A DNA stretch of 56,032 nt from an uncultured Candidatus Saccharibacteria bacterium (lineage in GTDB: Bacteria > Patescibacteriota > Minisyncoccia > Minisyncoccales > UBA1441), in the NCBI GenBank assembly GCA_964615735.1, contig CAZTQU010000001.1:1-56032 (forward strand), written 5' to 3'. Positions 17,796-56,032 of the stretch are shown one piece after another. The position numbers and the translations under genes are program-made. Positions within the stretch are counted from its first letter, which is position 1. Each line of letters opens with the position of its first letter. The notes under the pieces were generated by a model. That model searched no databases. It was not told the DNA's origin and saw only the letters and a program-made list of their open reading frames with translations.

Positions 17796-17821
17796 AGCTT
17801 TAAAAAGGTGCGCTTAAAGCT
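17796..17821 (+). terminator. AT-rich hairpin downstream of ssrA (possible terminator)
   Basis: AGCTTTAA (17796-17803), a 10-nt loop, TTAAAGCT (17814-17821), then TGTTATGTGT. Confidence 0.3.
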
Positions 17822-17878
17822 TGTTATGTGTAATTGGCAAAAGGCAATTTTTATGTGCTTCATTTAAAATTTAACCAC

Positions 17879-18124: not shown

Positions 18125-18221
18125 TCGCTTTTTACTTAATCTGTATGACCCGTTTACCTTTACCGCTTTCTTTCTTGCAAGCGGCAAGTGGTTTTGATAG
18201 CGCATCTAATCTACCTATTTT

Positions 18222-18716: not shown

Positions 18717-18828
18717 CTTTTGAATAGCTATTTTCGCTCAAAATTTATATAACTTATAATTTGACGAAATATTATGACAGATGAATTAATTGATATTTAT
18801 GACGAAAATAATAATATTAACAATCAAT

Positions 18829-19128
18829 ATGAATAAAGCTAAATTAAATTATCTTGTTGATGCTTCGATAGCGGTTTTGTTTACCGTTGTGTCAATAACA
18901 GGATTAATCCTTTTTTTCTTTTTGCCTAGTGGCTTAAAACAGGGAGGATCTCGAGAAGTCTTAGGCATCGCCAAGCAAGTTTGGACTCAGATTCATGATT
19001 GGTCAGGAATCATTTTAGTAGCTTTTATATCAGCACATTTTATTCTTCATTGGCAATGGATAGTCTATGCGACTAAAAATACATTCCAGAAAAAACAAAT
19101 TTACTCAGAGATTAAAAACAATAAATAG
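18829..19128 (+). CDS. DUF4405-like small membrane protein
   Basis: MNKAKLNYLVDASIAVLF...IHDWSGIILVAFISAHFILHWQWI shows the conserved His pattern of the family. I chose the internal ATG as start; the track's TTG at 18790 is an alternative. Confidence 0.6.
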   Translation: MNKAKLNYLVDASIAVLFTVVSITGLILFFFLPSGLKQGGSREVLGIAKQVWTQIHDWSGIILVAFISAHFILHWQWIVYATKNTFQKKQIYSEIKNNK

Positions 19129-19209
19129 GAAGCACCATTCATAATTGTAATAATTCAATCACCGTGGTAATATACGATATCTCATAGGCACCATTTTAAA
19201 TTCTTACTT

Positions 19210-19710
19210 ATCCAAAAAACACCCGTTAATAATCAAATAAAAGCGCTAAAATTAAACGTCGTCGGCCCGGACGGAAAGTCTTTGGGAATAATGAACCGGG
19301 AAGAAGCTTTGGAAAAAGCTCGGGAATTAAGCCTGGATTTAATTTTAGTTTCCGCCAAAGCCAATCCCCCGGTGGCTAAGATTACCGAAGCCGGAAAATA
19401 TCTTTACCAGCAGCAAAAGAAACATCGGGTAAAAAAGAGCGGAGGAGCAGTGAAAGTGATAACCATTAAATTTAACACTTCTCCCCACGACCTGGAGACC
19501 AAACTAAAGCAAACTAAAACCTTTTTGGAAAAGGGTCACCAAGTCCAAGTAACTATGCGTCTGCGGGGAAGAGAAAACGCCCTTCGCTTCCAGGCCAAAG
19601 AAAAACTGACCAATTTCATCGAAGCTATCAAGAAAGAGGCTCCAGTTAAAGTTCAGGATCAGACGTCATCCAGGTCCCGTCAATTTAAAGTTAATATCAC
19701 CAAACAATGA
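19210..19710 (+). CDS. infC: Translation initiation factor IF-3; the 5' boundary is uncertain and the start is non-canonical (ATC 19210, or ATA at 19177 or 19237)
   Basis: Conserved IF3 N-domain residues PVNNQIKALKLNVVGPDGKSLGIMNREEAL are encoded from 19222. That is upstream of the first canonical start (TTG 19282). The frame is open from 19171 and contains no ATG, GTG or TTG before 19282. Confidence 0.85.
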   Translation: MQKTPVNNQIKALKLNVVGPDGKSLGIMNREEALEKARELSLDLILVSAKANPPVAKITEAGKYLYQQQKKHRVKKSGGAVKVITIKFNTSPHDLETKLKQTKTFLEKGHQVQVTMRLRGRENALRFQAKEKLTNFIEAIKKEAPVKVQDQTSSRSRQFKVNITKQ

Positions 19711-19904
19711 AGGGAAAAGCAAAAACCAGAAAATCTTTAAGTAAGAGATTTAAAATTACCCCTACCGGGAAAGTCCTCCGCCGCTTAAGCGGCATGGATC
19801 ATCTTCGAAAGGGCAAATCGGAACGAACTAAACAGAGGCAGAAGAAATGGGTGGTTGTTTCTAAGCCTCTGGCTAAAAAAATTAAATCAGAATTAAAATA
19901 TTAA
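19707..19904 (+). CDS. rpmI: 50S ribosomal protein L35
   Basis: 65 aa, basic: KTRKSLSKRFKITPTGKVLRR...H. ATGA overlap with infC. Confidence 0.95.
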   Translation: MKGKAKTRKSLSKRFKITPTGKVLRRLSGMDHLRKGKSERTKQRQKKWVVVSKPLAKKIKSELKY

Positions 19905-20251
19905 TGACGAGAGTAAAGCGAGGGACAGTTGCTCATAAGAGACGAAAGAACACTCTTCAGGAAACAAAGGGCTTCAAATGGGATAGAAAGTCAAAGTACC
20001 GCTCTGCTAAGGACGCCCTGCGGCATGCTTGGGTTCATGCTTACCGCGACCGGCGAAAGAAAAAGCGGGATTTTAGAGGCCTGTGGCAAATTAAAATCAA
20101 CGCCGCGGCCAGAGAAAATGGATTATCCTATTCCCGTTTCATTCACCAACTGAAAGAAAAAGACATTCAGATCGACCGGAAGATTCTTGCTCAATTAGCG
20201 GAAAATCACCCCTCTGTTTTCAAGCAAATTGTAGAAGAAGTAAAAGAATAA
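19904..20251 (+). CDS. rplT: 50S ribosomal protein L20
   Basis: MTRVKRGTVAHKRRKN...AYRDRRKKKRDFR.LWI.RINAAAR pattern. Confidence 0.95.
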   Translation: MTRVKRGTVAHKRRKNTLQETKGFKWDRKSKYRSAKDALRHAWVHAYRDRRKKKRDFRGLWQIKINAAARENGLSYSRFIHQLKEKDIQIDRKILAQLAENHPSVFKQIVEEVKE

Positions 20252-34962: not shown

Positions 34963-36057
34963 TTGAATCATATGGAAGAAATGCCAATTAAAACCTTATC
35001 CTCTCTGATTAAAGAAAAGGAAAATATTTTTCTTTTCCCCGCCTTGAGTAATCGAGGAGATAGTCTCTTAGCCGGTTTGGCCCTCTTCTATAGTTTAAAA
35101 AATTCTGGGCAAAAAGCAAATCTTATTCTCGGTTCTCTCCCTTGGGAGGCTCAGCCTTTTATCAGCGAGGACTTTTCTTTCCAGCCCAAGATTATTATCC
35201 GGCCGCCGGCTTCTCTTCAAATTAAACAACTGCGCTACGAAAAGGAAAAAGAGCAGCTTATCCTTTATCTTGATGCTCAGGATAAAGCCCTTGACCGCCG
35301 GGACTTTGATCTCCTGCTTTCTCCTCAACCCCAGCCCGATCTTCTTATCACCTTGGGAGTGCAAAAATGGGAAGAGATTGTTCATCCTCTCTTTCGAAAT
35401 TTTCAGGATTCTCTGCCCATTATCAATATTGACTGTCATGCCTCTAATCAATATTTTGGCCGTCTCAACTTAGTTAATCCGCAGACTACCTCCTTAAGTC
35501 AATGGCTAACTGTTATTCTGCGTCAGCTTCAAGAAGAGGAAATTGATGCCCGGGCGGCTGGCTATCTGCTGCAGGGTCTTAAACTTCTCCCCCCGGAAAA
35601 ACAGACCAAAGAATCATTGGCCCAGATGCATTATCTTATGGGGAAGGGAGCTTTAGAATTTAATCCCCCCTCTTCTTTTCTCACCTCTCAAGCCAAGATT
35701 GATTTCCTGCAGCAAGCAATAAAGAAAATACAAGTTTTTTCAAAACCAAAAATTGCTTTTCTTCCCTTGGAAACAGGCGTTTGGCGTTCTCTTTCTCCCC
35801 CCTATCTGTCTTCTCTCCTTCAGGAATTGAAATCCGGGCTCTTCCAGTTTAAAAATATTCTCCTTCTTTGGAAAGTAGATCACCAAACTATTCAGGGAAT
35901 AGTTTCTCTCCAGAATCAAGAAAAGCAAAATCAGGTGCTGAAAGTTTTCTCCGGGAAAGAAAAAGGGAAAATTGGAATTTTCCGAGCGGGAAAGACAAAT
36001 CTTTCCTCGGTCAAGGATAGAATTTGGCCGCTCTTAACAGAAAAAAACAGCGATTAA
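34963..36057 (+). CDS. NrnA/DHH-family-like protein with degenerate catalytic motifs
   Basis: It is colinear with the DHH layout, but the motifs read ...ALSNRGDSLLAG..., ...LLITLGV... and IINIDCHASN (DHH becomes DCH). There is no GGGH in the C-terminal part. Confidence 0.4.
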   Translation: MNHMEEMPIKTLSSLIKEKENIFLFPALSNRGDSLLAGLALFYSLKNSGQKANLILGSLPWEAQPFISEDFSFQPKIIIRPPASLQIKQLRYEKEKEQLILYLDAQDKALDRRDFDLLLSPQPQPDLLITLGVQKWEEIVHPLFRNFQDSLPIINIDCHASNQYFGRLNLVNPQTTSLSQWLTVILRQLQEEEIDARAAGYLLQGLKLLPPEKQTKESLAQMHYLMGKGALEFNPPSSFLTSQAKIDFLQQAIKKIQVFSKPKIAFLPLETGVWRSLSPPYLSSLLQELKSGLFQFKNILLLWKVDHQTIQGIVSLQNQEKQNQVLKVFSGKEKGKIGIFRAGKTNLSSVKDRIWPLLTEKNSD

Positions 36058-37367
36058 CATCAAAAATAATGACCACTCTTGCTCACCAAGTACAAATTGA
36101 TCCGGCTGTCATTAAGGAGGTTCTTCCCCGGGTTCACCATATCCGGGATTATCAGAAAGCGCTGGAAGCCCATTTCTTGGGAGAAACTACCCGCTTAGTG
36201 GACATCATCTTAGCGGGAGCTATTCTCCTCCGCGCCTCCGACATTCATCTTGAGCCTCAACAAGAAAAAAGCGCCCGGCTGCGTATTAGAATCGACGGCG
36301 TTCTAAAAACAGTTTCTCTCCTCCCCATCCGTGTTTATGAACTTGCTCTTTCCCGAATTAAGCTGCTCTCCGGTCTTAAATTAAATATTACCCGCCGGGC
36401 CCAAGACGGACGCTTTACTATCTATTATCACCAAAGAGAAATTGAAGTCCGGACTTCTGTTCTCCCTTCAGAATTCGGAGAAACGATTGTTATGAGAATC
36501 TTGGACCCAGAATCGCTCCGGGATGTTGCCGCTCTTGGAATGCGGCCAGGGCTATTAAAGCTGATGAACCAAGAATTGGAGCGCCCCAATGGAATGATTC
36601 TCTTAACCGGGCCAACTGGCTCCGGAAAAACAACTACTCTTTATGCCTTCCTTAAAAAAATTGAAAATCCGGGGATAAAAATTATCACTATTGAAGATCC
36701 GATTGAATACCAGCTAGAAGGAATCTCTCAAACTCAGGTTGATCCCCAGCATGGTTATGATTTTGCCTCCGGCCTCTCCGCCATTGTTCGCCAAGACCCG
36801 GATGTCATTCTGGTGGGAGAAATCCGGGATGGGGATACCGCCCGCATTGCCATCCAGGCGGCAATGACCGGCCATTTAGTTTTTTCCACTCTCCATACCA
36901 ATGATGCCGCCGGGACAATTTCCCGCCTGGAAGCCCTGGGAGTGAGCAGCACGGATATTGCTCCCGCTCTTAATGTTGCCATCGCCCAGCGGCTTGTTCG
37001 TCGAGTCTGCCCTCACTGCTCTCATCTTTCTTCCCCAACTCCAGAGGAAAGGGAAGAGATAAAAAAGGCTTATGCTCAAATGCCAGCTTTAGTTTCCCTT
37101 CCGCCTTTCAAAGAGAAGATAAAGATTCTTCAAGCCAATCCGGCGGGTTGCTCCACCTGCAACTTTACTGGCTACCAAAATCGAATTGGCATTTTTGAGG
37201 CCTTCCGCGTCGATGACGAGATGGAAAATCTGATTCTGCGCTCCCCGTCTATTCCTAAGTTAAGGAACAAAGCTACGGAAAAAGGAATGCTTAGTCTCTA
37301 CCTAGACGGCATCCTGAAAGTGCTTAACCATCAGACTACCTTGGAAGAAGTCCATCGGATGACTTAA
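36024..37367 (+). CDS. pilB: GspE/PilB-family secretion/type IV pilus assembly ATPase (short N-terminus)
   Basis: Walker A LTGPTGSGKTTTL, Asp box, Walker B ILVGEIRD, His box, and tetracysteine CPHC...CSTC. The TTG start at 36024 has an AAGGA Shine-Dalgarno site; ATG 36069 is an alternative start. Confidence 0.85.
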   Translation: MAALNRKKQRLTSKIMTTLAHQVQIDPAVIKEVLPRVHHIRDYQKALEAHFLGETTRLVDIILAGAILLRASDIHLEPQQEKSARLRIRIDGVLKTVSLLPIRVYELALSRIKLLSGLKLNITRRAQDGRFTIYYHQREIEVRTSVLPSEFGETIVMRILDPESLRDVAALGMRPGLLKLMNQELERPNGMILLTGPTGSGKTTTLYAFLKKIENPGIKIITIEDPIEYQLEGISQTQVDPQHGYDFASGLSAIVRQDPDVILVGEIRDGDTARIAIQAAMTGHLVFSTLHTNDAAGTISRLEALGVSSTDIAPALNVAIAQRLVRRVCPHCSHLSSPTPEEREEIKKAYAQMPALVSLPPFKEKIKILQANPAGCSTCNFTGYQNRIGIFEAFRVDDEMENLILRSPSIPKLRNKATEKGMLSLYLDGILKVLNHQTTLEEVHRMT

Positions 37368-37370
37368 TCC

Positions 37371-38063
37371 ATGATGACTAAACTTTTCTGGTTCATTCTT
37401 GCTCTTTTCTCCGTTCCCAGTTTAGGCGGCTGTCAATCCCCATCCGCTAGCAACCAATTATTGATTGTGGAAATTCAGATCGCTGGTTCTCAATCTTCTC
37501 AGGATTATCTTCGGCTTTACAATCCCAGTAATCAGACAGTTGACCTCCGCCGCTTCCAGTTAAAAAAGAAAACTCAATCTGGGCAGGAATATTCTCTCTT
37601 CTCTTTTCCGGAAGGAAGCCAGATTGATCCCGGAGAAAGCCTTGTTTGGGCCAATGCTCAAGAAGGGTTTGCTGATTTTCTTTCTACTCCCTATCAAAGC
37701 CAAGCCACCCTGGCGGCCGATAACAGCGTTGCTCTTCTCGACCCCCAAAAAACAATCATCGATGCTCTCGCCTGGGGCAAAGGGGATGATCCCTTCCAGG
37801 AAGGAAGCCCCTTTCCGCAAAATCCTTCTGCTTACCAGCGCCTAAAAAGGAAACAGTTTCAGGAGGAGTATCTTGACAGCCATAATAACCAGGCTGACTT
37901 TTTTCTTGACGATTATCAGTTGACAGCTAACCAGCAACCAGATAATCTAGCTTTAGGCAGTCAAACCCCCAAACCACTTTCTTCACCGACCGTCCTTGCT
38001 TTCGGTTCAGGACTAGGGATCTTCAGTATTATCACTATCTTGCTTTTAAAAAGGAAATTATAA
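37371..38063 (+). CDS. Lamin-tail-domain (LTD) protein with a lipoprotein signal peptide and a C-terminal hydrophobic anchor
   Basis: Lipobox SLGGC, LTD signature LLIVEIQIAGSQSSQDYLRLYNPSNQTVDL, and C-terminal VLAFGSGLGIFSIITILLLKRKL. Confidence 0.7.
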   Translation: MMTKLFWFILALFSVPSLGGCQSPSASNQLLIVEIQIAGSQSSQDYLRLYNPSNQTVDLRRFQLKKKTQSGQEYSLFSFPEGSQIDPGESLVWANAQEGFADFLSTPYQSQATLAADNSVALLDPQKTIIDALAWGKGDDPFQEGSPFPQNPSAYQRLKRKQFQEEYLDSHNNQADFFLDDYQLTANQQPDNLALGSQTPKPLSSPTVLAFGSGLGIFSIITILLLKRKL

Positions 38064-43776: not shown

Positions 43777-45135
43777 TTATTCAGCATAAATCCTCTGCTT
43801 TATTAAGTTAATTTCCTCTGCTATTTGTTCGTCATTAGCCACTTGATTTTCAACCTTATTGCAAGCGTAGAGGGCGGTGGTATGATCCTTTCCGCCGAAG
43901 ATATCTCCAATGTTAGGAAATGATTTTCTTAATTCTTTCCTTAAAAAATACATCGCCACTTGTCTGGCCCAAGCTATCTCTCGGCGGCGGGTGGGAGCAA
44001 AGAGCTGATCGGGGGGGAGACTGTAAAAACTAGCTACGCAACTAAAGATTTTTTTCGGAGTAGTAATCTTTCGTGGTCCTCCGGTAAGATCTTTGAGAAG
44101 AATTTTTGCCCGGCTTACCGTCAAAGGGTCGGGATGTAATTTTTGGTAAGCCCGGATACGATTAATTGCTCCTTCGAGTTCCCGAATGTTGTGCTGAATA
44201 TTATTGGCGACGTAAGAAAGAACTTCCTCGCCTACTTCTAATCCTGGGATTTTTGACTCTAAAATAGCTAAACGGCTTTCGTAATCAGGCTGGCTGATAT
44301 CCGCTACCATTCCTCCCTCGAAGCGGGATTTTAATCTTTTTTCCAAGGTAGCAATAGCGCTTGGCGGACGATCCGAAGAAAGAACAATCTGTTTATTATT
44401 ATCGTAGAGAGCATTAAAAATGTGAAAGAATTCTTCTTGGGTTTTCTCTTTGCCGGCTAGAAACTGAACATCATCGACGATCAGAAGATCTAAATGATAA
44501 AACTGATACTTCAGTTCTTCAATGCTGTTGTTCCGAATCGAGGCGACGATAGAAGAAACCAGTTTTCCCGCTGGCAAGTATTGGACCTTGGCCCGGCCGG
44601 TACTATCTACCTCGTTGCCAATGGCCTGAAGGAGATGAGTCTTTCCCAATCCGACCCCTCCGTAAATAAGCAGGGGATTGTAAGCTTTCCCTGGGGATTT
44701 AGCCACTGCCCAGGCACTCGCCTGGGCTAATTCATTAAAAGAAGCAACGACGAATTGCTGAAAGATATAACGGGGATTAAGATTGGTCTGAGGGTTAATA
44801 CTCAACTCTTCAAAAGCTGGTTGTTCTTCATCTTGAGAAGCCGACGCCGATCCAGTGGAGGCCTTAGTTTCTCTGGGAGCGGGGGCGGACTTCTTTTCAA
44901 TAATGTATTCTATTCTCTTAACGTCGGGAGCAACTTCCCTTAAGACTTCTAAAATCAAACGGTGATATTTTTTACTGAGCCACTCACGGGAGAAAGTATT
45001 AGGAACGGCAATAAAAACTTTCTCTTCTGTTTGTTCGGCCAAGCGTGTATTCTTCAACCAGGTAGCAAAATTAGCTTTAGAAACCTTAAATTGAAGCTGG
45101 GCTAAAACTGACTCCCAAAGTTCTTCTTTGGTCAT
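43777..45135 (-). CDS. dnaA: Chromosomal replication initiator DnaA
   Basis: GGVGLGKTHLL Walker A, DDVQFL Walker B, and a domain IV helix-turn-helix (...AWARQVAMYF...GGKDHTT). Confidence 0.95.
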   Translation of the reverse strand: MTKEELWESVLAQLQFKVSKANFATWLKNTRLAEQTEEKVFIAVPNTFSREWLSKKYHRLILEVLREVAPDVKRIEYIIEKKSAPAPRETKASTGSASASQDEEQPAFEELSINPQTNLNPRYIFQQFVVASFNELAQASAWAVAKSPGKAYNPLLIYGGVGLGKTHLLQAIGNEVDSTGRAKVQYLPAGKLVSSIVASIRNNSIEELKYQFYHLDLLIVDDVQFLAGKEKTQEEFFHIFNALYDNNKQIVLSSDRPPSAIATLEKRLKSRFEGGMVADISQPDYESRLAILESKIPGLEVGEEVLSYVANNIQHNIRELEGAINRIRAYQKLHPDPLTVSRAKILLKDLTGGPRKITTPKKIFSCVASFYSLPPDQLFAPTRRREIAWARQVAMYFLRKELRKSFPNIGDIFGGKDHTTALYACNKVENQVANDEQIAEEINLIKQRIYAE

Positions 45136-46869: not shown

Positions 46870-48465
46870 TTATATTTCTCCGGCTGGGACGATAGGAATA
46901 ATAGCAATAGAGTGAATGGCAGTGGAGAGGAGGGACTCGGTGCTGCTGAGCACATATTCGCTTTTTAGATCCGCGGGAGAATCGGTGAAAACCTGGCATC
47001 GGCCGTCAAAATCTTCAGCATCAGTCATCACCGCCCAGAAGCTTCCCTCGATTCTAACGGAATAAATTTTCTCCTCAATTTCGTGCCAAGGATAATCAAA
47101 GGTTTCATGCCAGATGGTATTGCCAATTTCCGAAGCAGAAATAGTGTGGCAATGGCCTTCAAAATTGGGCTTTTCGCAAAAAGTTACCGAGCCCTGTAAG
47201 TCATCCTCGTAATTTAGATAGAGGTTAAAGATATCAACGCTCCTCACTCGGTCAATGGGTTCGACAATGGGTTGGAGATCAATATCACTCAAAGTGGGAA
47301 CTAGGCGGTTGCGAATATTATTGGTGCCTAACCCGCTTGGATAGACGATACCGCATCTTCCTTCGCCGTTGGTTGAAGTGTGGAGTATTGTTCCCCAGCA
47401 GTGGTCGGGGAGATGTGGAAGGCCAAACAAAGATACGACATCATCAAGGTTGGCGAAAGAAAGGTCGCCGAACCCAGGGGTTGGGCCGCCGACGCCGGTG
47501 GTAAAAGAAAGGTCGCCGAGATCGAAGTCCCCGAAATCAAAGTCCCCGAAATAAAATAGGCCGGGATCAACATCCCCGAAGGAAAAGTCATCGGCTAAGC
47601 CAATAGCGACTTGTTGACTCCAATCCTCGTAGGTGTAGTGAAGATACAGGGACCGCGTCCGGTCGTTAAAGTTTTCTAGATCAGTAATAGGACTATTTAA
47701 GACAACGGGCAGATTTTTTGGGAAATCTTGGAAGGTCTCCTCGGTATACATTCCTCCTTCATGCGGGAAAAGGTAAATACCATATTCATGATTATCAAAG
47801 TAGAGAGAGCGAGGAGAAAAACTTAAGCCGAGGATGGGACGACTTTCGCCAGCAGCCGGACGGAAGAGAAGGGGGTTTTCCAGCTTTACAAAGCTTTCTT
47901 GGTAATCTTTCTCGGGAAAAAGAAAAACCGTCTGCCATTCACTCCGCGGAGCTTCAATTTCAATTTCCTCGGCCTGAAAATCCTCTGGAAGCACGTTGGG
48001 AGTGTTCTCCTGAAAGCAATGCATTTCTTCTTCATCCGTTCCCCGTTGAGCATAAAGGCAAATTCCGTGAAGGGGAATAGGCTTGATTGGCTCCAGCCCT
48101 ACTAATTGAGGATTAATAGTTCTCAAAGTCATAAAGGCTCCGAGGACAATAAGAAGACCTGCTCCTCCCCCGATTATCCGGTGACGAGCAGCCTTGGCTT
48201 TATCTACGGAGCCAGCCGAGGTTAAATGTTGGATTCCTCCGACGATCAGAATAACGAAGGCGATCACCCCAACAATATCAACCACTAGATAATAAAGATA
48301 GGCGAGATATTGAGCCAGGGGGCTTTCACTCGTCGGGACGCTTTCTATGCCTGGGATTTTAGGGTAATTGAGTTCCAGCCGAGCGTGGCTTACCAAGGGG
48401 ACGGCTAGAAGACCCAGGAGGAGAAGAAAACTGAAAAATCGAAGAGCGTTTTTAGAAACTAACAT
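46870..48465 (-). CDS. T4SS-pilin (TrbC/VirB2-like) N-domain fused to a ~400-aa extracellular region with beta-gamma-crystallin-like motifs and FGD repeats
   Basis: The N-terminus has a signal peptide, a hydrophobic helix, SAGSVDKAKAARHRIIGG, a second helix, then LRTINPQLVG. This is paralogous to the 822-aa neighbour. The C-terminus has FCEKPNFEGHC...IYSVRIEGSFWAVMTDAEDFDGRC Greek-key-like motifs. Confidence 0.6.
   Translation of the reverse strand: MLVSKNALRFFSFLLLLGLLAVPLVSHARLELNYPKIPGIESVPTSESPLAQYLAYLYYLVVDIVGVIAFVILIVGGIQHLTSAGSVDKAKAARHRIIGGGAGLLIVLGAFMTLRTINPQLVGLEPIKPIPLHGICLYAQRGTDEEEMHCFQENTPNVLPEDFQAEEIEIEAPRSEWQTVFLFPEKDYQESFVKLENPLLFRPAAGESRPILGLSFSPRSLYFDNHEYGIYLFPHEGGMYTEETFQDFPKNLPVVLNSPITDLENFNDRTRSLYLHYTYEDWSQQVAIGLADDFSFGDVDPGLFYFGDFDFGDFDLGDLSFTTGVGGPTPGFGDLSFANLDDVVSLFGLPHLPDHCWGTILHTSTNGEGRCGIVYPSGLGTNNIRNRLVPTLSDIDLQPIVEPIDRVRSVDIFNLYLNYEDDLQGSVTFCEKPNFEGHCHTISASEIGNTIWHETFDYPWHEIEEKIYSVRIEGSFWAVMTDAEDFDGRCQVFTDSPADLKSEYVLSSTESLLSTAIHSIAIIPIVPAGEI
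47456..47553 (-). repeat. In-frame short tandem/dispersed repeats encoding (D/S)FGD(F/L) units
   Basis: Three consecutive 15-nt units lie at 47509-47553: aaggtcgccgagatc, gaagtccccgaaatc and aaagtccccgaaata. In addition, aaagaaaggtcgccga occurs at 47456 and again at 47504. Confidence 0.8.
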
Positions 48466-48514
48466 TTTTTTATTAATTGTTATTAATTATTATTTATTAT
48501 TTATTAATTACCAT

Positions 48515-50983
48515 TTATCCAGATTCTCTTCCTTCTTCAATAAAGAAAAAGTTTTGCATTAAATCTTTGATAGCATCGCGGCACTGAACGCTGGCCCGGT
48601 CCCGGCGGCAGGCTTCTTGTTCTTCAGCCGTTAAGTCGGGACTATTATAGGGGTAACAATCGTCAAATTCCGGGAGAATAATCAATTCTCGTAACTCCAT
48701 TCTCTCGAGAAGAGTGAGGCAATTGTTCAGATCAACAGCTGTCATTTCTCCTTCAGGAATATGACCAAAACCAGGAATTGCTTTATCAAATTTTGTTCTA
48801 GAATCAACTAATTGGCAAATCAATTCCCGGCGATCTTCGTCATCGGGCAGAAGGTTTTCTGCCTCGATAAGATCAATAACGCGGTCTGTTTTCGGCTTAA
48901 TCGCCTCCTCGTCTTCCTCAAACCATTTTTGAGTTTCCTTGCGCCGCTGAAAGATGGTCCTGATGGGGCAAGGGCTAATACTGCCTGGGCAGAGACAAGT
49001 GGAACAAGGGCACTGCGGGCAATTGCCACAATTATTACAACGACATCCGTGTTGCTCAAAGCAACCGGGACCACAACCAGCGGAGTCTTGGGTGACTTGG
49101 CAGCCATCACACCGACATCTTGGAGGAAGATGAAATAGTTTACACTGATTATCAGGATCATTTTTATCGTAGGAGGGACAGACAATTTCTGGAGTAGAGG
49201 TTTTAATGATAATAGCCAGCTCTTTAGTTAATTGAGGAATGTAATTTTCGGCATTGTCTATCATTTCTCCTAGAAAAATAGTCCCAATAGGAAATCCCTT
49301 TTCCGTCAGGGGGTCAATTACTCCTTCCTCGAGAAAGGATCGTGAGCGGAGTTGCTCGGCTTTTTTCGTGCCGACATCCGGGCAATAGAGAGTCAAAGCG
49401 TCTTGATCATAAAAGTCGTAGCACTGGCGCTCTTGGTCGGTGGCCTCGGCAATTTCTTCGCTTGGCGGCATGATTCTGCACATAACGCCCATTTGATCGG
49501 TAGGATCAATCTCATCTTTTCCTTCTTCATTATTAATAAGGAATTTTGAGCATTGGTAGGTGGAGAAAATCTGATCTTCCCAGGACCATTCTACTAATTT
49601 CCCCTTCTCAAGATCATCGAGATTACATTTTTCACAGAACAACTTTTTCCCATTCTCTTGGCAGTCTTGACAATTAAAGTCCCGACAATATTTAGAGATG
49701 CCTAATTGCTGTTCTTCGATACATTCTTCTCCCCACTGAGCGTCATTACTGTTGACACAAAACTTAATCTGGGTAGAAGGCTCTCCCCGGTTTTTTAGGT
49801 CGTACAAGGAAGAATGGCTGATAGTCGCCCGGTAGGGGCAGTAGTTTTTGTAAGTGTTTTCTGCCTTAACTAGGTAGGAAAGGTCGGTTGTTAAACTAGC
49901 GGAATAAGGAGGGAGAAAGTGATCAGTTAACCAGCGGATTTGGTTGACGACGGTTAAATCTTGATAGTGATCAACATCCACTTTTACTAATTCACTATCT
50001 TTTAAGCAGTCGTGTCCCTGAATAACTTGATTCATAAACAAGCCACAGCCTCCCTCTCGGAAAAGTTGTTTTCTAATTTGTATCATTCGGCCCCGGCCGG
50101 GGCAGGGGTCTCCACCGCAAGGAGCGCCGCAGGGACAGGTTCCAAATGGAATACAGGGGCAAGTTCCACAACCACAAACGCCACAGGCGCACTGGGCACT
50201 AAGCTGAGCTAATTCCTTGACCCGATCGCGAAGAAATTCTGATTTGGCCTGAATGGCTTGGTTAATTTTCTCTAGGCAATCTAAACGGTCCCGGTGAAGC
50301 GTTGGCTGAATGCCTGGCTGGTTGGGGTCGGCATCGATAAATTCTCCATCTTCGTCAAAGGCGTAACATTGATAGGCGATTTCTGCATCTTCCGGCTGAG
50401 CGTCTGGCCACTGTTCCGGAAATTCCTCGGTCATCTTTTGAGCGATGGTTTCCTTTTCCTCCTGACTGATAGCTGTTTGACTGTGGCAATCAACCAATTG
50501 GTTGCTTTCATTAAAACAGCTGATGTTTTTGGCTAAAATTCTCGTTTCCAACAAAGTCCCAAAAGGAATTTCTTGATAGACGAAAGGGACGACTTCTTGT
50601 TCTGAAGGAGGAGCAGAGGGAGAAGACGTTCCGGGAGCAACCTCTGCCTCCGGAATTCCCCCCAAAATTTGAGGGTTAATAGTCTGAAGAACGATATAAG
50701 AAGTGATGATTATAAGCAAGCTTCCGAAGCCAGCTATCATTTGCTGCCGGGCTCTCTTCATAGCGTCGACAGATCCAGTTGCCAGGAGATAACGCAGGCC
50801 GCCGTAAACTAAGGATAGAAAAGCTACCAGGCCGGCGATACGGATGGTCCACTTTACTAATCCGGAAACCCAAGAAGTAAGCGCCTCCCCTTTCCCGCTG
50901 GAACCAGCGGCAAAAGCAAAAGCGACCATGCTCAATAAAACGAGAAGGCTGATAAGAAAAAGAAATAATTTTTTCTTATCCAT
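48515..50983 (-). CDS. T4SS-pilin N-domain fused to a ~700-aa cysteine-rich extracellular region
   Basis: The N-terminus has a signal peptide, a helix, ATGSVDAMKRARQQMIAGFG, a second helix, then LQTINPQILGG. By hand count there are 49 Cys, and none in the first ~155 residues. Two dense blocks read CACGVCGCGTCPCIPFGTCPCGAPCGGDPC and CRCDGCQ...CRCNNCGNCPQCPCSTCLCPGSISPC. Confidence 0.6.
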   Translation of the reverse strand: MDKKKLFLFLISLLVLLSMVAFAFAAGSSGKGEALTSWVSGLVKWTIRIAGLVAFLSLVYGGLRYLLATGSVDAMKRARQQMIAGFGSLLIIITSYIVLQTINPQILGGIPEAEVAPGTSSPSAPPSEQEVVPFVYQEIPFGTLLETRILAKNISCFNESNQLVDCHSQTAISQEEKETIAQKMTEEFPEQWPDAQPEDAEIAYQCYAFDEDGEFIDADPNQPGIQPTLHRDRLDCLEKINQAIQAKSEFLRDRVKELAQLSAQCACGVCGCGTCPCIPFGTCPCGAPCGGDPCPGRGRMIQIRKQLFREGGCGLFMNQVIQGHDCLKDSELVKVDVDHYQDLTVVNQIRWLTDHFLPPYSASLTTDLSYLVKAENTYKNYCPYRATISHSSLYDLKNRGEPSTQIKFCVNSNDAQWGEECIEEQQLGISKYCRDFNCQDCQENGKKLFCEKCNLDDLEKGKLVEWSWEDQIFSTYQCSKFLINNEEGKDEIDPTDQMGVMCRIMPPSEEIAEATDQERQCYDFYDQDALTLYCPDVGTKKAEQLRSRSFLEEGVIDPLTEKGFPIGTIFLGEMIDNAENYIPQLTKELAIIIKTSTPEIVCPSYDKNDPDNQCKLFHLPPRCRCDGCQVTQDSAGCGPGCFEQHGCRCNNCGNCPQCPCSTCLCPGSISPCPIRTIFQRRKETQKWFEEDEEAIKPKTDRVIDLIEAENLLPDDEDRRELICQLVDSRTKFDKAIPGFGHIPEGEMTAVDLNNCLTLLERMELRELIILPEFDDCYPYNSPDLTAEEQEACRRDRASVQCRDAIKDLMQNFFFIEEGRESG

Positions 50984-51341
50984 TTTTCACTTCTAAATAA
51001 ACAGTCAAGATCCAGCTAAAAGCGACATCTCCGAAAATAGGGATCGATTCCACTAAAAATGGCAGGCCAGCCCTCTTTAATAGTTTCCAAATTACCTTGA
51101 CACTCTTGCCGCTGATAGTTCCCGAGCGGAGAAAAAGAGTCCAGGCCGAAAAAATGACCAAGCCCACGATATCAAGAATAGTAGAAATAAGGAGGCCGAC
51201 GGGGGCAGTAATAACACCGAGAATGAGCAAAAGACAAATTGAACCCCCTCCGAGGTCAAGCATTCCTCCAATAGTCATCATCAATAAAGCATCCGGAGCA
51301 AGAAAATTAGAACTTGCCTTAGAAGGAGCGCCCTCTTTCAT
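50976..51341 (-). CDS. Small polytopic membrane protein (operon member, unknown function)
   Basis: 121 aa with 3-4 hydrophobic helices. It overlaps both neighbouring genes, by 8 nt and 23 nt. Confidence 0.4.
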   Translation of the reverse strand: MKEGAPSKASSNFLAPDALLMMTIGGMLDLGGGSICLLLILGVITAPVGLLISTILDIVGLVIFSAWTLFLRSGTISGKSVKVIWKLLKRAGLPFLVESIPIFGDVAFSWILTVYLEVKNG

Positions 51342-53136
51342 CTTCTTTCTCTTTTAAGGCTTTTTTTGCTTTTTCAATCTTCAAAACTTCTTCCGGGGAG
51401 GTGGTAATAATCTGGTCTTCGGCGTAAGAAGCGACTACTTGGATAGCTACTCTTTTTACCCCGGCAAAAAAGATTCCCTCTCCTACCTGGGTCGAAAGCA
51501 GAAGGTCTCTTTCTCCCTGGGTAAGATTAAAAGTATCCTGGATAAATTCAATGGAAGCCGGAGACTGCTTCATTAATAATTGGAGGGAAGAGTTATTAAT
51601 AATCGGGCGTCCGTAGGCGGAATTCATAAAATCACTGACGTCTTGAGTAATGGTGGTCAATCCCAGCCAATACTTACGAGCGCGTTTGGCGATGGAGAAA
51701 AGAAAGGAAGCTCCTTCTTCCGTTTTCATAATCCACCAGGCCTCATCAATGGTAGCGATTCTTTTCTTCAGCTGGGAGCGAATAGTGTTCCAGATATAGT
51801 GGAGGATAACATACATTGCCATCGGTCTTAATTCGTCTTCCATGTCACGAATGCCGAAAACGACTAATTTACTATCCATTTTGATATTAGAATACTGGTT
51901 GAAGAAATTGGCGTAGCTGCCCTGAGTATATTTTCTCAGGCGGCGGACTAATGACTCTCCTCCCTCCATACTTTCCAAAACGGCCTCGAAATCACTCATC
52001 CGCGGCGGCTGGATTTGAGAAAAATCAGATTCTGGGGTGATGTCTTTGGCGGCATAGGTCTCGGTTAAGGCTTGATCAACGATGGAATCTTCTTCCGGAG
52101 TTAATCCGCCGAGCATGAGACGGAAAAGGCCAACAAGTTCAAGAATATTATTCCGGAGAACGGAAGCCGGCTCTTCGTCAGCTCGAGGAATTGGTAAGTC
52201 GAAAGGATTGAGATGATGAGGGGAAGAGAGACTGATTTTGAAGAAAGACCCTCCGACAGCTTCAGACAGAAATTTATACTCATTTTCCGGGTCAATGATA
52301 ATTACATCTACTCCCTCCATGAGATAACGGATGATTTCTAATTTGGCGAAGTAGCTTTTTCCTCCTCCGCTTTTTCCGAAGATAACTTCATTGGCGTTTT
52401 CCAAAGAGAAACGGTCAAAGAGAATGAGGGAATTATTATGCCGGTTAATGCCGTAGAGAATACCTTTGCTCGAGCTCAGATCAAAGGAGATGAAGGGGAA
52501 AACGCTGGAAAGAGGGGCCGTATTCATCAGAGTGTGGACCCAGAGCTGATCTAGGCCGTAAGGGGAATTACTGACAAATCCCTCTTTTTGTTGGAAAGCG
52601 GCTGGCTTCAGATATATAAGTCTTGACTCCAAGATGGCCCGGATATCGGTTTCTACCTCTTTTAACCCCTCTTTTTCCCGGGCATACAAAGTGAAGTAAA
52701 TACTTACCCGGAACATTCTTTCTTGAGCTGTCTTTAACTGATTTCGAAGTTGTTCGATGTCCTGGAAAGCGGTTTCCAGTTCTGGACTCCTGACCAGCCC
52801 TTTTTCTTCTCGGTCAAGAATCTCGGCTTGGATTTCGGTCGTTTTTTTCCGGAGCTGCTTGAGAATAGGGGCGGTATCTATGGGATGGAAAAAGAAAGAG
52901 ATGTCCAGGGTCTGGGGAAGGTTGACAATCGGCGCCAGCCAGCCGACACTGAGATAGCGGGGATAGGAGAAGACGAAGAAACTTTCTAAATACCGCTCTT
53001 CCATCATAATATAGTTGGCGGTGATCTCTACCGAGGAGGGAGCAACCAGATCCTGCTGGCTAACCAGCTGTTGCCGGCCGCCAGAGGCAGAAGAGGCAGT
53101 GGAAGAAGAAAAAAGTTGTCTCAATTTCCCCAGCAT
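51319..53136 (-). CDS. virB4: VirB4/TrbE/TraC-family type IV secretion ATPase
   Basis: Walker A VIFGKSGGGKSYF, Walker B/DEAW IATIDEAWWIMK, and an N-terminal domain LESFFVFSYPRYLSVGWLAPIV typical of Gram-positive-type VirB4. Confidence 0.85.
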   Translation of the reverse strand: MLGKLRQLFSSSTASSASGGRQQLVSQQDLVAPSSVEITANYIMMEERYLESFFVFSYPRYLSVGWLAPIVNLPQTLDISFFFHPIDTAPILKQLRKKTTEIQAEILDREEKGLVRSPELETAFQDIEQLRNQLKTAQERMFRVSIYFTLYAREKEGLKEVETDIRAILESRLIYLKPAAFQQKEGFVSNSPYGLDQLWVHTLMNTAPLSSVFPFISFDLSSSKGILYGINRHNNSLILFDRFSLENANEVIFGKSGGGKSYFAKLEIIRYLMEGVDVIIIDPENEYKFLSEAVGGSFFKISLSSPHHLNPFDLPIPRADEEPASVLRNNILELVGLFRLMLGGLTPEEDSIVDQALTETYAAKDITPESDFSQIQPPRMSDFEAVLESMEGGESLVRRLRKYTQGSYANFFNQYSNIKMDSKLVVFGIRDMEDELRPMAMYVILHYIWNTIRSQLKKRIATIDEAWWIMKTEEGASFLFSIAKRARKYWLGLTTITQDVSDFMNSAYGRPIINNSSLQLLMKQSPASIEFIQDTFNLTQGERDLLLSTQVGEGIFFAGVKRVAIQVVASYAEDQIITTSPEEVLKIEKAKKALKEKEDERGRSF

Positions 53137-53137
53137 A

Positions 53138-53782
53138 TTATTTGATTAATTCTGGCATAATAGAAGGATAGTAGCCAACCTCGGATGACTGGGGATGGTA
53201 AGTTGACCACAGAAGTTCAATTAATTCGGAAGAGGTCAGAGGAGCAGCCAGCAAACCGCATCGCCGCAAGCCGATAGCAGTAAATTCCATCCTTTGGTAA
53301 AGCTGGCTTCGGGCCCGGCGAAAAACAACTTCGCTCATGACCACTTCTTCTTTTTTATGGCGGAAAAGTTCTTTAATAGGAGCAGAAATTTCTAGCTCAG
53401 CCAGGGTATAGGGAAGAACAACAAAAAACCTTTTATTCATAATAGTCCCTTGCTGGATGAGGCGGGCGATAAACCGACGGTAATCAGCGGTTTGAATTTT
53501 TAGCAGTTTATCGGTCTGGTTTTTTTCAAGGTCTTTTAATTTATCCAAGTAACCGGTTAAATTTACTCGTCTCGACTGGATAATGATCTGGGTGGGAAAA
53601 TCTAAAGAGTTCAAAAAATTCTGGAACTGAAAGACGATCGCTTCCTGTTCGTCGGCTGATTTCAAAGCAAAGTTAAGGGAAGAAACCATCAGTACTCCCC
53701 GTAAAGCGTTGCTCTTTAAGATAATAACTCCTTCTCTTATCTCCTTGAAAGGAAGAAGATCTTGGGCGGAAGCAGCTGACAT
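53138..53782 (-). CDS. Hypothetical protein resembling the N-terminal (non-ATPase) domain of VirB4-like proteins
   Basis: DLLPFKEIREGVIILKSNALRGVLMVSSLNFALKSADEQEAIVFQFQNFLNSLDFPTQIIIQSRRVNL matches, by eye, the pattern at the start of Gram-positive VirB4 homologues. It ends 1 nt before the virB4 ATG. Confidence 0.4.
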   Translation of the reverse strand: MSAASAQDLLPFKEIREGVIILKSNALRGVLMVSSLNFALKSADEQEAIVFQFQNFLNSLDFPTQIIIQSRRVNLTGYLDKLKDLEKNQTDKLLKIQTADYRRFIARLIQQGTIMNKRFFVVLPYTLAELEISAPIKELFRHKKEEVVMSEVVFRRARSQLYQRMEFTAIGLRRCGLLAAPLTSSELIELLWSTYHPQSSEVGYYPSIMPELIK

Positions 53783-53785
53783 AAA

Positions 53786-54202
53786 TTAAATTCTTTTCGT
53801 CTCGATTTTTGTTTCGAGACGGCTTAACTGGCTACCAGAAGAAATTCCCAAAAGTTCTTTCTTTTTTTTCTCGATGAGCGGCGCTTGTTTCTTTTGGATA
53901 ACAACTTCTAAATTAGGGGTAATCGTTTTTTTCTGCCAGATATAACGTTTTGGGGCGACGAGAAATTTTCCTAAATGCTTGACAAGATCAAACAAAGAGC
54001 GCCCTCCCGGTTTGATAAAAACAAAAATAGCGCTGATTATTAGAGCTAAGACGACGACGACCCAGAAGACTGTTCGAGGGAGGAAAAAATAGAAAACAAA
54101 GACGAAAATTCCCTCTCCCACTAGCCAGAGGAGTTGCTTAAAAGTCAATGGTCCCACGAGGGTCGTTTCTCGTTCAATAAACTTAGGAACTAGGAACTGC
54201 AT
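53786..54202 (-). CDS. PrgI/VirB3-like small membrane protein
   Basis: MQFLVPKFIERETTLVGPLTFKQLLWLV, then two TM helices. It lies upstream of virB4. Confidence 0.55.
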   Translation of the reverse strand: MQFLVPKFIERETTLVGPLTFKQLLWLVGEGIFVFVFYFFLPRTVFWVVVVLALIISAIFVFIKPGGRSLFDLVKHLGKFLVAPKRYIWQKKTITPNLEVVIQKKQAPLIEKKKKELLGISSGSQLSRLETKIETKRI

Positions 54203-54237: not shown

Positions 54238-54612
54238 TTATTCAACGGGTTCTCCGTAGATATCTTTTAACTTTCCGGGAGAGGAGGGCTGCAAGTAGTT
54301 TAACTTCTTCAGGTTGCCCTGTAAAGGTTGAAAAATTAAGTTCTGCAGATCACCGTTTAATTTTTGGGCTAGTTCTTCAGAGAGAGCGTACTCTTGTTGG
54401 AGGCGGGCGGGAACTTGGCCAAGATTGAATAAGCCCAGGAGTACGTCTCCGACTATATTGCCCAGCTTGGCTACCGGCTGGTCTTCTAATCCGTACTGCT
54501 CGACTAATCCTTGAACTATCTTGGCCGTTTCTTCCGAAAAGATGGCTTCCTGGATATCCGGCGGAAGATTGGGATAAATTTTCCAAAACTGGTCAATGTC
54601 GCTTTGTTCCAT
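54238..54612 (-). CDS. Hypothetical soluble 124-aa protein, first gene of the T4SS-like operon
   Basis: It is a clean ORF directly downstream of the promoter-like boxes. I recognise no family. Confidence 0.45.
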   Translation of the reverse strand: MEQSDIDQFWKIYPNLPPDIQEAIFSEETAKIVQGLVEQYGLEDQPVAKLGNIVGDVLLGLFNLGQVPARLQQEYALSEELAQKLNGDLQNLIFQPLQGNLKKLNYLQPSSPGKLKDIYGEPVE

Positions 54613-54771: not shown

Positions 54772-56032
54772 ATGAAAGAAGAAGACAAGAAAGGCCAAGA
54801 AAAAACAGGAGGTTGGGGATTAACAATATTAGCTCTAGTTTTTCTGGGGGCGGCGATTTTCTTCTTTGTTAGTCGCTTTTCTTTCTGGGCTGGATTGCCA
54901 GCCCTCATCGGAGCCGTCGTGGCGCTCATTTTCGCCATTTGGCTGGAATGGGCTCCCAAGGATTTCATTCTTGGTATCAACCAAGAGGGCGACATAATGA
55001 TGGTCGTCCGCGCCGGGAAAGTTTGGAAGTTTTTCCTGCAGTGGCAAGGATGGCACTTTGCTACTCAAGGGGAAGTTCAACAAGGAGAGGCTCTCCGCCG
55101 CTGGGACGTTATCCTAGACAAGGAAGAAGTCAAAAGAAACTGGTTGAGAGAAATCTTGGGGGGATTAGTATTTGTCGGCATTCCCCCCTTCCAGCAGGTG
55201 TTAACTTACCGTTTTAAGTGGGCTCATCTGCACGAGGATGGGAGCGTCCACCACCACGAAAAAGTTCTGAACTATGCCTTCGCCAAGTGGGATATGTACG
55301 TAATCGAGATAAAGGGAATAGAGGACAAAAATGGGCTTCCTCTAGACATCACAATCCTACTTCCGATGCGCATCGTCAATCCCTACGAGGCCTTCTTTGT
55401 CGTCGGCCGCTGGCTAGTGATGGTAACTGGGCTTCTGCAGGTGCCGCTCCGCAGATTTATTGGTTCCTGCACCTATCAAGAGCTTTTAGCAATGCAGGGC
55501 GCTGATACTACCGACCCGGCTGTCAACCAGCTTGAAAGGCAGTTATGGGCCGAGGTGGAAGACGCTTTGGGTGAAGAACAAGAAAAGAGCGATTCCCAGC
55601 AGGCGGTGACTTGGGACGACGCAAAGATCCGGATTTTCGGAATTGAGATAGATAAACTCCGCGCCGGATTTAACAGCATCGACCCTCCTGAATCGTACCG
55701 CAAGTTAACGACGAAGCAATATGAAGCTTCGCAGGAAGCGGAAGCGGTAAAGATTAAAGGAGAGGCGGCTGGTTTGGCTACGGCTAAAAGGGTGACTATT
55801 GCTGTTATGGCCATCGCCCGGCAGTTAGCCGGCTATCAGCCCGAGCAAGAGCTTTCTCCTGACGAATGGCTGAAGGTCGGTAAGATGACTGACCAAGCTT
55901 ATCAGTACTGGCTGACAAGCCAGGGCCTGGAAAGTATCAAGTCCTCTGACAAGATTATTATTACCGGAGGAGGGCAGCAGGTCGGCGCCGATGTTGCCGG
56001 TCTTACCATTCAAGAAGCGGTAAGGCAGGAGA
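54772..56032 (+). CDS. SPFH/band-7 (prohibitin/flotillin-like) membrane protein, N-terminal 420 codons; it runs off the right edge and is absent from the ORF track
   Basis: My translation from ATG 54772 has no stop: MKEEDKKGQEKTGGWGLTILALVFLGAAIFFFV... (two TM helices), then ...LDITILLPMRIVNPYEAFFVV...IFGIEIDKLRAGFNSIDPPESYRKLTTKQYEASQEAEAVKIKGEAAG, an SPFH core followed by a coiled coil. Confidence 0.65.
   Translation, partial: MKEEDKKGQEKTGGWGLTILALVFLGAAIFFFVSRFSFWAGLPALIGAVVALIFAIWLEWAPKDFILGINQEGDIMMVVRAGKVWKFFLQWQGWHFATQGEVQQGEALRRWDVILDKEEVKRNWLREILGGLVFVGIPPFQQVLTYRFKWAHLHEDGSVHHHEKVLNYAFAKWDMYVIEIKGIEDKNGLPLDITILLPMRIVNPYEAFFVVGRWLVMVTGLLQVPLRRFIGSCTYQELLAMQGADTTDPAVNQLERQLWAEVEDALGEEQEKSDSQQAVTWDDAKIRIFGIEIDKLRAGFNSIDPPESYRKLTTKQYEASQEAEAVKIKGEAAGLATAKRVTIAVMAIARQLAGYQPEQELSPDEWLKVGKMTDQAYQYWLTSQGLESIKSSDKIIITGGGQQVGADVAGLTIQEAVRQE

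Follow-up and report, generated by a model that had tools for sequence, protein, structure and literature searches.

What does a putative type IV secretion system (T4SS) cluster do with a pilin-like gene that encodes 822 residues, of which 49 are cysteines? The question is raised by the minus-strand open reading frame (ORF) 48515..50983, which starts with ATG and lies in the window, the whole 56,032-nucleotide stretch analysed here (contig CAZTQU010000001.1, from an uncultured Candidatus Saccharibacteria bacterium). Our answer, on which our confidence is about evenly divided, is that the product is a structural subunit of the T4SS of the Candidate Phyla Radiation (CPR), exported by Sec, anchored by a pilin hairpin and carrying a disulfide-braced ectodomain as a stalk, tip or adhesin. 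Within this answer, we infer the topology, the disulfide chemistry and the stalk, tip or adhesin role. The ectodomain family, its two-unit cysteine-loop architecture and its fixed place directly after virB4 are new, while the T4SS cluster itself and the pilin-domain superfamily context are already known.

The cysteine-rich gene is real, and its cysteine density is far beyond chance. We found one identical protein and 12 full-length orthologues of 37-78% identity. The ORF is taken as a real gene because the full-length orthologues stand in a conserved gene order and the cysteine blocks are not a DNA artefact; an origin of the blocks in a DNA tandem repeat, low complexity or a wrong frame was ruled out, and they contain no tandem repeat. 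Cysteine makes up 5.96% of the protein, compared with 0.66% (99 of 14,941 residues) over the remaining 38 ORFs of the window that are 150 residues or longer. Against this background, the binomial probability of 49 or more cysteines in 822 residues is 3e-30, and those of the two densest stretches, block 1 (CACGVCGCGTCPCIPFGTCPCGAPCGGDPC) and block 2, are 4e-15 and 2e-19. Eight CxC, nine CxxC and three CPC motifs occur in a context rich in Cys, Gly and Pro. The initial annotation had counted about 49 cysteines by hand, none of them in the first ~155 residues, and had placed 10 within 30 residues at nt ~50100-50195 and 14 within 50 residues at nt 48968-49117. The number is exactly 49, the first cysteine is residue 156, the limits of block 1 are refined to those in Table 1, and those of block 2 are reproduced to the nucleotide. 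All 49 lie C-terminal to the pilin-like domain and its linker.

The cysteine positions, whose conservation the initial annotation had singled out as a check, are strongly conserved. Among the 12 full-length orthologues, 42 of the 49 cysteines (86%) are invariant, compared with 16.5% of the other ectodomain positions. In an alignment of 19 diverse members, 14 cysteines are still invariant, as against 1.9% of the other ectodomain positions.

Architecture of the cysteine-rich protein

The N-terminal part of the protein resembles a VirB2-type pilin. Hydropathy marks segments at residues 3-31, 41-67 and 81-107, with the connecting loop ...AMKRARQQ... between the last two. The predicted hairpin consists of a first transmembrane (TM) helix (TM1, ~45-67), the basic loop KRARQQ, TM2 (~82-102) and the conserved motif TINPQ, and AlphaFold2 (AF2) models its helices at 32-66 and 71-101. 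I101, N102 and P103 of the TINP motif (alignment numbering) are invariant across the 19-sequence alignment. The Pfam family T4SS_pilin (PF18895) matches the window protein at E 1.4e-3 and 19.1 bits, under its gathering score of 26.6. Of the 19 aligned relatives, 16 match it, at an E as low as 1.6e-8; TrbC/VirB2 (PF04956) is matched by one relative as well. A hidden Markov model built from the N-domain also finds the neighbouring 531-residue gene at 4.6e-22. Judged from these profiles, the PF18895 domain is a relative of VirB2, and the TrbC/VirB2-like N-domain proposed by the initial annotation is supported by the matches across the family. Small pilins measure ~70-130 residues when mature; this protein has 822, and the hairpin takes up only ~9% of the chain.

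The order of signal peptide, TM1, KRARQQ loop and TM2 suggests, by the positive-inside rule, that the C-terminal ~690 residues lie outside the cell, as the initial annotation had also supposed. This orientation is supported because the same N-module is fused in relatives to C-terminal Peptidase_M23, Peptidase_C39-like or lamin-tail domains. Between hairpin and ectodomain runs the Pro/Ser-rich linker, the least conserved of all segments (0.30).

The AF2 model calculated from the 19-sequence diverse alignment has a mean predicted local distance difference test (pLDDT) of 73.4 and a predicted template modelling score (pTM) of 0.72; an earlier model from a 14-sequence alignment was poor (pLDDT 49.7). 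The framework of the ectodomain is predicted with confidence and comprises a small beta/alpha N-part, a beta-rich centre and a mixed C-terminal module. Long helices are modelled at 232-262, 344-380 and 570-593, and shorter ones at 672-689 and 694-706, with each cysteine block placed between a long helix and the following helix. We divide the ectodomain into unit A, a central region, unit B and the C-terminal module. Unit A contains the YQEIPFGTLLE motif, the DRLDC helix 232-262, block 1, PCPGR and a helix at 296-307, and it is also present in the distant pilin fusions P0015-P0020. The central region holds 10 invariant cysteines and the motifs FNCxDC and (DP)ATFYC. Unit B contains an (I)PIGxxxD motif, helix 570-593, LPPRCRC, block 2, PCPIR and the helices at 672-706.

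Aligning the two units with hhalign gave a probability of 89%, an E of 2e-6 and a score of 44.8 over 99 columns. Shuffled columns scored 12.4 +/- 2.5 (maximum 22), and a reversed unit scored 28.5. The flanks of the two loops correspond in order: ...IPxGxLxE... in unit A and ...IPIGExxD... in unit B precede the helix, L..L...CxC and L..LP..CxC precede the loop, and (D)PCPxR and PCPxR follow it and lead into the next helix. Units A and B probably arose by internal duplication, with part of the hhalign score being compositional.

Outside the pilin domain, the protein has no match in NCBIfam, PHROGs or Pfam. Even at E<=10, no Pfam family was matched by the isolated cysteine blocks, the ectodomain or the C-terminal module. 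A profile search of PDB sequences gave a best E of 0.21. With the pTM 0.72 model, Foldseek found no structure at E<=0.001: the best E was 2.1 in PDB and 0.5 in BFVD, and the alignments obtained were short helical hairpins only. As modelled, the ectodomain is a new fold or family without known relatives in Pfam, NCBIfam, PHROGs, PDB and BFVD. These libraries bear out the impression of the initial annotation that it resembles no known secretion-system component, and the profile searches found no described cysteine-rich repeat that matches the blocks; such a match would have spoken against the annotation.

The boundary between hairpin and ectodomain allows a different view of the chain, in which the protein is a precursor and the hairpin serves as an export or targeting leader. 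The ectodomain would be cut off after the TINPQ motif or in the linker and then be released or held non-covalently, as a secreted or wall-associated protein, and the hairpin alone would join the pilus. Such processing fits the sequence, in which TM2 ends with the invariant TINP and a disordered linker of low conservation comes next, and the RP4 TrbC and Ti VirB2 pilins are trimmed C-terminally. The superfamily also includes short proteins with the pilin domain only (for example P0101, 130 residues) and ~300-residue proteins that combine a TM segment with unit B and the C-terminal module (P0038, P0065), so the halves can work as separate chains. However, the cluster encodes no TraF-like or other dedicated peptidase, no sequence feature proves cleavage, and the fusion is kept across very distant lineages, which suggests that the tether matters. 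We regard a processed precursor as unlikely.

Disulfide bonds or bound metal

In six successive segments of the ectodomain, the invariant cysteines number 4, 10, 10, 2, 12 and 4, all even. We notice that cysteines are also gained and lost in twos. P0003 and P0004 have lost both 450 and 521. The pair aligned at 735 and 814 disappeared once in the clade of the window protein and P0002 and a second time, independently, in P0011, and both 755 and 776 are missing from P0018 as well as from P0030. Cysteines 628 and 665 were gained together, the pairs 409/421 and 602/614 co-occur, and block 1 of P0012 and P0013 has an insertion with six additional cysteines. The pairwise gain and loss and the even segment counts favour disulfides over metallothionein-like clusters, and the invariant cysteines most likely form disulfides rather than metal clusters. 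The initial annotation had left the choice between metal-thiolate clusters and a knotted disulfide module. The second half of this alternative gains from the paired cysteines and even counts, and the metallothionein half becomes less likely, with only one of nine histidines invariant.

Within the orthologue group, the identity of non-cysteine positions is 0.52-0.54 in the blocks, which equals the ectodomain average of 0.50, and the idea of hypervariable cysteine loops in this group was rejected. Loop length and cysteine number vary only between distant subfamilies, from 6 to ~30 cysteines.

Several observations weigh against a disulfide-braced subunit of the T4SS. The blocks themselves are modelled at pLDDT 31-45, and their fold and order are not given by the model. 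The ectodomain cysteine total is odd in 7 of the 13 orthologues, so not all cysteines are paired within one chain. The co-variation comes from few sequences and few independent events. Neither the 56-kb window nor the fetched loci yielded DsbA, DsbB, VKOR or an exported protein resembling thioredoxin: Pfam was run on practically every ORF of 90 residues or more, and a scan for CxxC motifs in the window and L001-L006 turned up nothing beyond the zinc motifs of Fpg and of the PilB type. According to the literature (PMC10633639), Patescibacteria have no respiratory chain. Such a chain supplies the quinones used by DsbB and VKOR, which raises the question of how ~21 disulfides would be oxidised, or whether metals are bound instead. 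Finally, gene order is the only link between the cysteine-rich protein and the T4SS.

Part of this evidence speaks for metal. The cysteine blocks, and perhaps a CxxC...CxxC stretch at residues 438-453, would then be metal-thiolate or zinc-knuckle-like modules that, in a reducing habitat, bind Zn, Cu or Fe and stabilise the fold or capture metal. Many CPR bacteria inhabit anoxic water. The CxC, CxxC and CPC motifs in their Cys/Gly/Pro-rich composition, the odd totals and the missing disulfide-forming machinery in the scanned window and loci all fit such modules, as do the low pLDDT of the blocks, which is common for cofactor-dependent folds, and a CPR metabolism without quinone-linked respiration (PMC10633639). 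On the other hand, the cysteines change in twos and not in sets of three or four ligands: where 450 is lost with 521, 441 and 453 stay. The number and spacing of block cysteines vary freely between distant relatives (6 to ~30 in block 1), a freedom that a fixed cluster geometry would not tolerate. The poor conservation of histidine, the absence of any match to metallothionein, zinc-ribbon or ferredoxin families even at E<=10, and the 20 of 42 conserved cysteines that lie outside the blocks, spread over ordinary secondary structure, argue in the same direction. We consider metal binding possible but doubtful. A ferredoxin-like 4Fe-4S site in block 2 (CNNCGNCPQCP) was rejected: its spacing is CxxCxxCxxCP and not CxxCxxCxxxCP, it is not kept in distant relatives, and Pfam finds nothing.

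Comparison with other cysteine-rich proteins points both ways. The local density of CxC and CxxC in a Cys/Gly/Pro context is shared with metallothioneins. Those, in contrast, are small and cytoplasmic, whereas here two loops of a large, putatively exported protein are concerned; in addition, Pfam gives no match at E<=10, the cysteines co-vary in pairs and block 1 has an aromatic residue, F280. Giardia variant surface proteins (CXXC) and chlamydial OmcA/OmcB are extracellular, contain 6-12% cysteine and gain rigidity and protease resistance from cystines. The likeness to them is an analogy only, in which an odd cysteine could give an intermolecular cross-link; Pfam and Foldseek searches detect no homology, and organisms, anchors and folds differ.

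Place in the type IV secretion gene cluster and proposed role

The cysteine-rich gene belongs to a packed, operon-like minus-strand run that encodes, in order, PrgI, a TrsD-like protein, VirB4, a 121-residue TM protein, the cysteine-rich protein and a second pilin fusion. The 121-residue gene overlaps its neighbours at both ends, which suggests translational coupling. In the orthologous loci L001-L004, the gene order is identical and always stands beside jag-yidC-rnpA-dnaA. The position of the 121-residue gene is held there by a gene of 115-183 residues, and a PF26593 TraC-like protein occurs in orthologous loci at the position of the TrsD/TraC-like gene. The 531-residue pilin fusion is always directly downstream of the cysteine-rich gene in these loci, and a VirB6-like TrbL_3 gene lies just past the position where the window ends. 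Neither the locus nor its orthologues contain a pilin of VirB2 size; both pilin-domain genes are large fusions. In the window, dnaA (43777-45135) lies 3.4 kb from the cysteine-rich gene, and the cumulative GC skew has its minimum at ~44-52 kb.

By its gene content, the locus is an origin-proximal Patescibacterial T4SS cluster, with a VirB4 like that of mating-pair formation class FATA (MPF-FATA), TrsD, PrgI and VirB2-like genes, no relaxase and dnaA nearby. Published Patescibacterial systems are likewise MPF-FATA-like, mostly lack a relaxase, often lie beside dnaA and have arrays of VirB2-like pilins (PMC12102498). A mobile integrative and conjugative element was rejected: Pfam scans of the window found no relaxase, type IV coupling protein or integrase, and the flanks are core genes. 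Pfam and NCBIfam scans that covered nearly every ORF of the window reveal the chromosome of a small genome, with aminoacyl-tRNA synthetases, dnaA, dnaN, yidC, jag, PBP1 and smpB with transfer-messenger RNA (tmRNA) among the contents.

A profile search of 1.84 billion representatives matched 38,355 at E<=1e-3, 3,707 at <=1e-10 and 68 at <=1e-30. The majority of the best 150 of the 38,355 matches share only the pilin domain and the 'Y-x-E-I-P-x-G-x-L-I-E' motif that follows it. A smaller subset shares unit A, including a cysteine loop that ends in GDPCPxR, and the whole architecture occurs in few relatives (P0026-P0030, P0036, P0018). The C-terminal module (CYPYNS...DLMxNYFCC) also closes larger CPR proteins, since profile positions ~683-808 match the C-termini of P0042, P0054, P0059, P0060, P0085 and others (850-1300 residues). 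A second homologue search with the diverse alignment was dominated by the pilin domain and gained one extra protein. Further relatives are the N-terminally truncated P0010 (708 residues) and a more distant partial protein from a Patescibacteria metagenome-assembled genome (MAG). The genome records with relatives are MAGs labelled Saccharibacteria, Patescibacteria group, Parcubacteria and Nealsonbacteria; one short contig with a partial match is labelled Atribacteria. Going by these matches, pilin-anchored surface proteins form a huge modular superfamily specific to CPR bacteria, in which the 822-residue protein is one fixed architecture. The initial annotation had called a cysteine-dense ectodomain on a pilin scaffold unusual. 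Within its own lineage it is not so, given the 38,355 representatives and its place as a fixed syntenic part of a described T4SS cluster.

The size of this superfamily bears on the function. The hairpin could merely be a common membrane anchor of CPR bacteria, the protein a generic surface protein and its adjacency to virB4 historical. Most of the best 150 matches cover the N-module only, the relatives carry many different C-terminal domains, and among 1,948 assemblies that have both VirB4 and VirB2-like pilins, the pilin gene is not near virB4 in 813 (~40%; PMC12102498). This reading is nevertheless at odds with the gene overlaps and with a strictly conserved place directly downstream of virB4 among orthologues of 37-78% identity. 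The kinship of the PF18895 domain with VirB2 and the essentiality of pilin genes in the T4SS cluster of Southlakia (PMC10633639) also speak against it, and we hold it to be quite improbable.

For a subunit of the T4SS, we propose the following course. The protein would be exported by Sec, and its VirB2-like two-helix hairpin would anchor it in the cytoplasmic membrane, the T4SS channel or the pilus base. The ~690-residue ectodomain would then be presented outside the cell, where the 42 invariant cysteines would form ~21 local disulfides, stiffening the long helices and knotting both of the loops between them. Such a stalk, tip or adhesin would withstand proteases and shear and would touch the host cell in episymbiosis. 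We speculate that the protein is a minor subunit, a tip subunit or a basal ring, and not the bulk polymer of the pilus.

A bulk subunit is what the gene content of the locus might at first suggest, with its two large fusions and no small pilin gene. The hairpins would polymerise, and each subunit would add a 75-kDa cysteine-rich domain to a thick outer sheath. Cryo-electron tomography has found a tube-like conduit ~8.6 nm wide between another Patescibacterium and its host (PMC11880426), and the pilin arrays of the CPR bacterium Southlakia are essential (PMC10633639). Nevertheless, the reported width equals that of a naked pilus, and the geometry of VirB2/TraA pili (~5 subunits per turn, ~1.3 nm rise) would leave no room for 690-residue domains. 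Besides, a small pilin may be encoded outside the 56-kb window. We find a bulk role very improbable. The tomography establishes the existence of contact structures without telling what they consist of (PMC11880426).

A bolder extension of the subunit proposal, to which we give little credence, treats the T4SS 'pilins' of this lineage not as small, polymerising subunits but as carriers, each with a large cystine-knotted ectodomain whose fold has not been seen before. The cysteine-rich protein and its partner would then form a host-contacting or piercing head, with the tips of the cysteine loops docking or engaging the membrane, possibly switched by redox state or metal. If this is true, monoderm epibionts would have a T4SS surface organelle of a class not described before.

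The closest known proteins are the VirB2/TrbC pilins, PF18895 and the 'VirB2-like pilin arrays' of CPR bacteria (Wang 2023; Quinonero-Coronel 2025). Like them, the cysteine-rich protein has a signal peptide and a two-helix hairpin with a basic loop, and it is encoded by one of tandem pilin-domain genes beside virB4, trsD and prgI near dnaA. Unlike those pilins, which are treated as small proteins, it adds a 690-residue cysteine-rich ectodomain without a known homologue. With the VirB5/TraC pilus-tip adhesins of Gram-negative T4SSs, it shares the proposed role only, that of a minor, helix-rich, surface-exposed and possibly tip-located component. It matches them neither in sequence nor in fold (best Foldseek E in PDB 2.1), and VirB5 is soluble, with neither a pilin fusion nor cysteine-rich loops. 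PrgB of pCF10 is a Gram-positive adhesin anchored by sortase (LPXTG). The parallel lies in a monoderm T4SS of MPF-FATA lineage that requires a surface factor for cell-cell contact; PrgB has no homology to the cysteine-rich protein, which differs in its N-terminal pilin-like membrane anchor. A PrgB-like adhesin is reported as not found in CPR bacteria, which leaves this role open.

The T4SS of Patescibacteria mostly lacks a relaxase, often lacks a coupling protein and was essential, pilin arrays included, in the sole experimental test so far, in Southlakia epibionticum (PMC10633639; review PMC12857230). Reviewers raise the possibility of a pilus-like conduit that this system would build toward the host. 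Neither an adhesin nor a tip protein is known for it, its pilins are treated as small subunits, and we found no description of cysteine-rich or large pilin-fused T4SS proteins in the CPR literature. In at least one widespread lineage, a pilin-like hairpin carries a conserved 690-residue ectodomain with 42 fixed cysteines. Such an ectodomain with a putative new fold is a concrete candidate for the missing part by which the T4SS would touch the host. It is also a defined target for structure determination, for antibodies and localisation, and for re-analysis of transposon sequencing data.

Neighbouring genes and other loci of the window

The features of the cysteine-rich gene and of its neighbours in the cluster are collected in Table 1.

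Table 1. Coordinates in the window of the cysteine-rich gene, its segments and the adjacent genes
Feature	Position (nt)	Residues (aa)	Strand	Basis or remark
Cysteine-rich pilin-fusion protein, whole gene, 49 Cys	48515..50983	822	(-)	ORF list, Cys count, orthologues, synteny
Predicted Sec signal peptide	50909..50983	1-25	(-)	hydrophobic stretch aa 3-31; A-F-A|A cleavage site assigned by eye
VirB2/T4SS_pilin-like helical hairpin	50663..50890	32-107	(-)	PF18895, hydropathy, AF2 helices
Pro/Ser-rich linker	50594..50662	108-130	(-)	sequence; pLDDT <50 at aa 107-129; conservation 0.30
Unit A	49949..50593	131-345	(-)	alignments; AF2 pLDDT 87-97 over most of aa 131-260
Cys block 1, 10 Cys in 30 residues	50102-50191	265-294	(-)	10 of 10 invariant in orthologues; pLDDT 31-36
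Central alpha/beta region	49304..49948	346-560	(-)	AF2 helix 344-380 and beta-rich part, mostly pLDDT 70-98
Unit B, probable duplicate of unit A	48869..49303	561-705	(-)	hhalign against unit A
Cys block 2, 14 Cys in 50 residues	48968-49117	623-672	(-)	12 invariant in orthologues; pLDDT 31-45
C-terminal module (CYPYNS...C...C...DLMxNFF)	48518..48868	706-822	(-)	profile matches; no Pfam match
Second pilin fusion	46870..48465	531	(-)	T4SS_pilin N-domain, acidic repeats, weak beta/gamma-crystallin-like C-terminus (E 1.6e-3)
Polytopic membrane protein, no family match	50976..51341	121	(-)	overlaps VirB4 stop and start of cysteine-rich gene
VirB4-like T4SS ATPase, CD1110 family	51319..53136	605	(-)	NCBIfam NF045971, 370 bits (cutoff 325); Pfam P-loop_TraG 4e-28
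TrsD/TraC-like protein, related to VirB4 N-terminal part	53138..53782	214	(-)	NCBIfam VirB4_plasma N-part 6e-10; TrsD 1.6e-3
PrgI/VirB3-like membrane protein	53786..54202		(-)	Pfam PrgI 8e-8, over gathering score

The VirB4 function appears to be split in two at 51319-53782, a TrsD/TraC-like protein that resembles the VirB4 N-terminus being followed by the VirB4 ATPase; a split VirB4 is reported in the literature as typical of Patescibacteria. Upstream of prgI, a 124-residue soluble acidic protein without a family match is encoded at 54238-54612 (minus strand), and genes of similar size stand at the positions of the 121- and 124-residue genes in L001 and L003. A divergent SPFH/Band_7 gene marks the edge of the cluster at 54772-56031 (plus strand). 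In L001 it lies between the VirB6-like TrbL_3 gene and the remaining cluster, and in L003 it is absent.

In the second pilin fusion, the acidic FGDFD repeats (FGDFDFGDFDLGD) are encoded by a DNA repeat of three 15-bp units at 47512-47556. The 49-nt gap between the two pilin-fusion genes holds an AT-rich tandem repeat (TTATTAA, ~4 copies, 48470-48510), which could be a regulatory or slippage-prone spacer. The more distant Patescibacterial loci L018, L020 and L021 contain three to four large pilin-domain fusions in tandem. In the context of P0015, P0019, P0020 and P0172, some N-modules are fused to the Peptidase_M23, Peptidase_C39-like or lamin-tail domains mentioned above. Pilin-anchored M23 peptidases might supply the role of a VirB1-like cell-wall hydrolase, which, according to surveys, is mostly unfilled in the vicinity of CPR virB4.

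About 10 kb from the T4SS cluster, a second surface-appendage locus at 34963-38063 (plus strand) contains a T2SSE ATPase of the type IV pilus or type II secretion type (36024-37367). It is flanked by a 364-residue ORF without a family match and by a lamin-tail-domain protein (37371-38063).

Two further regions stand apart from the secretion genes. An isoleucyl-tRNA synthetase-like gene at 11718-15197 (minus strand, 1159 residues) carries a His_Phos_1 (PGM-like) domain at residues 481-636, inserted between the halves of the class I catalytic domain, which is unusual for an aminoacyl-tRNA synthetase. At 16968-20251 (plus strand), smpB is directly followed by tmRNA (17413-17738, Rfam 97.6 bits) and then by a stretch of low GC (0.36) with a NUDIX gene, a 112-residue DUF4405/cytochrome-b561-like membrane protein, infC and rplT; the b561-like protein is curious in a lineage reported to lack respiration.

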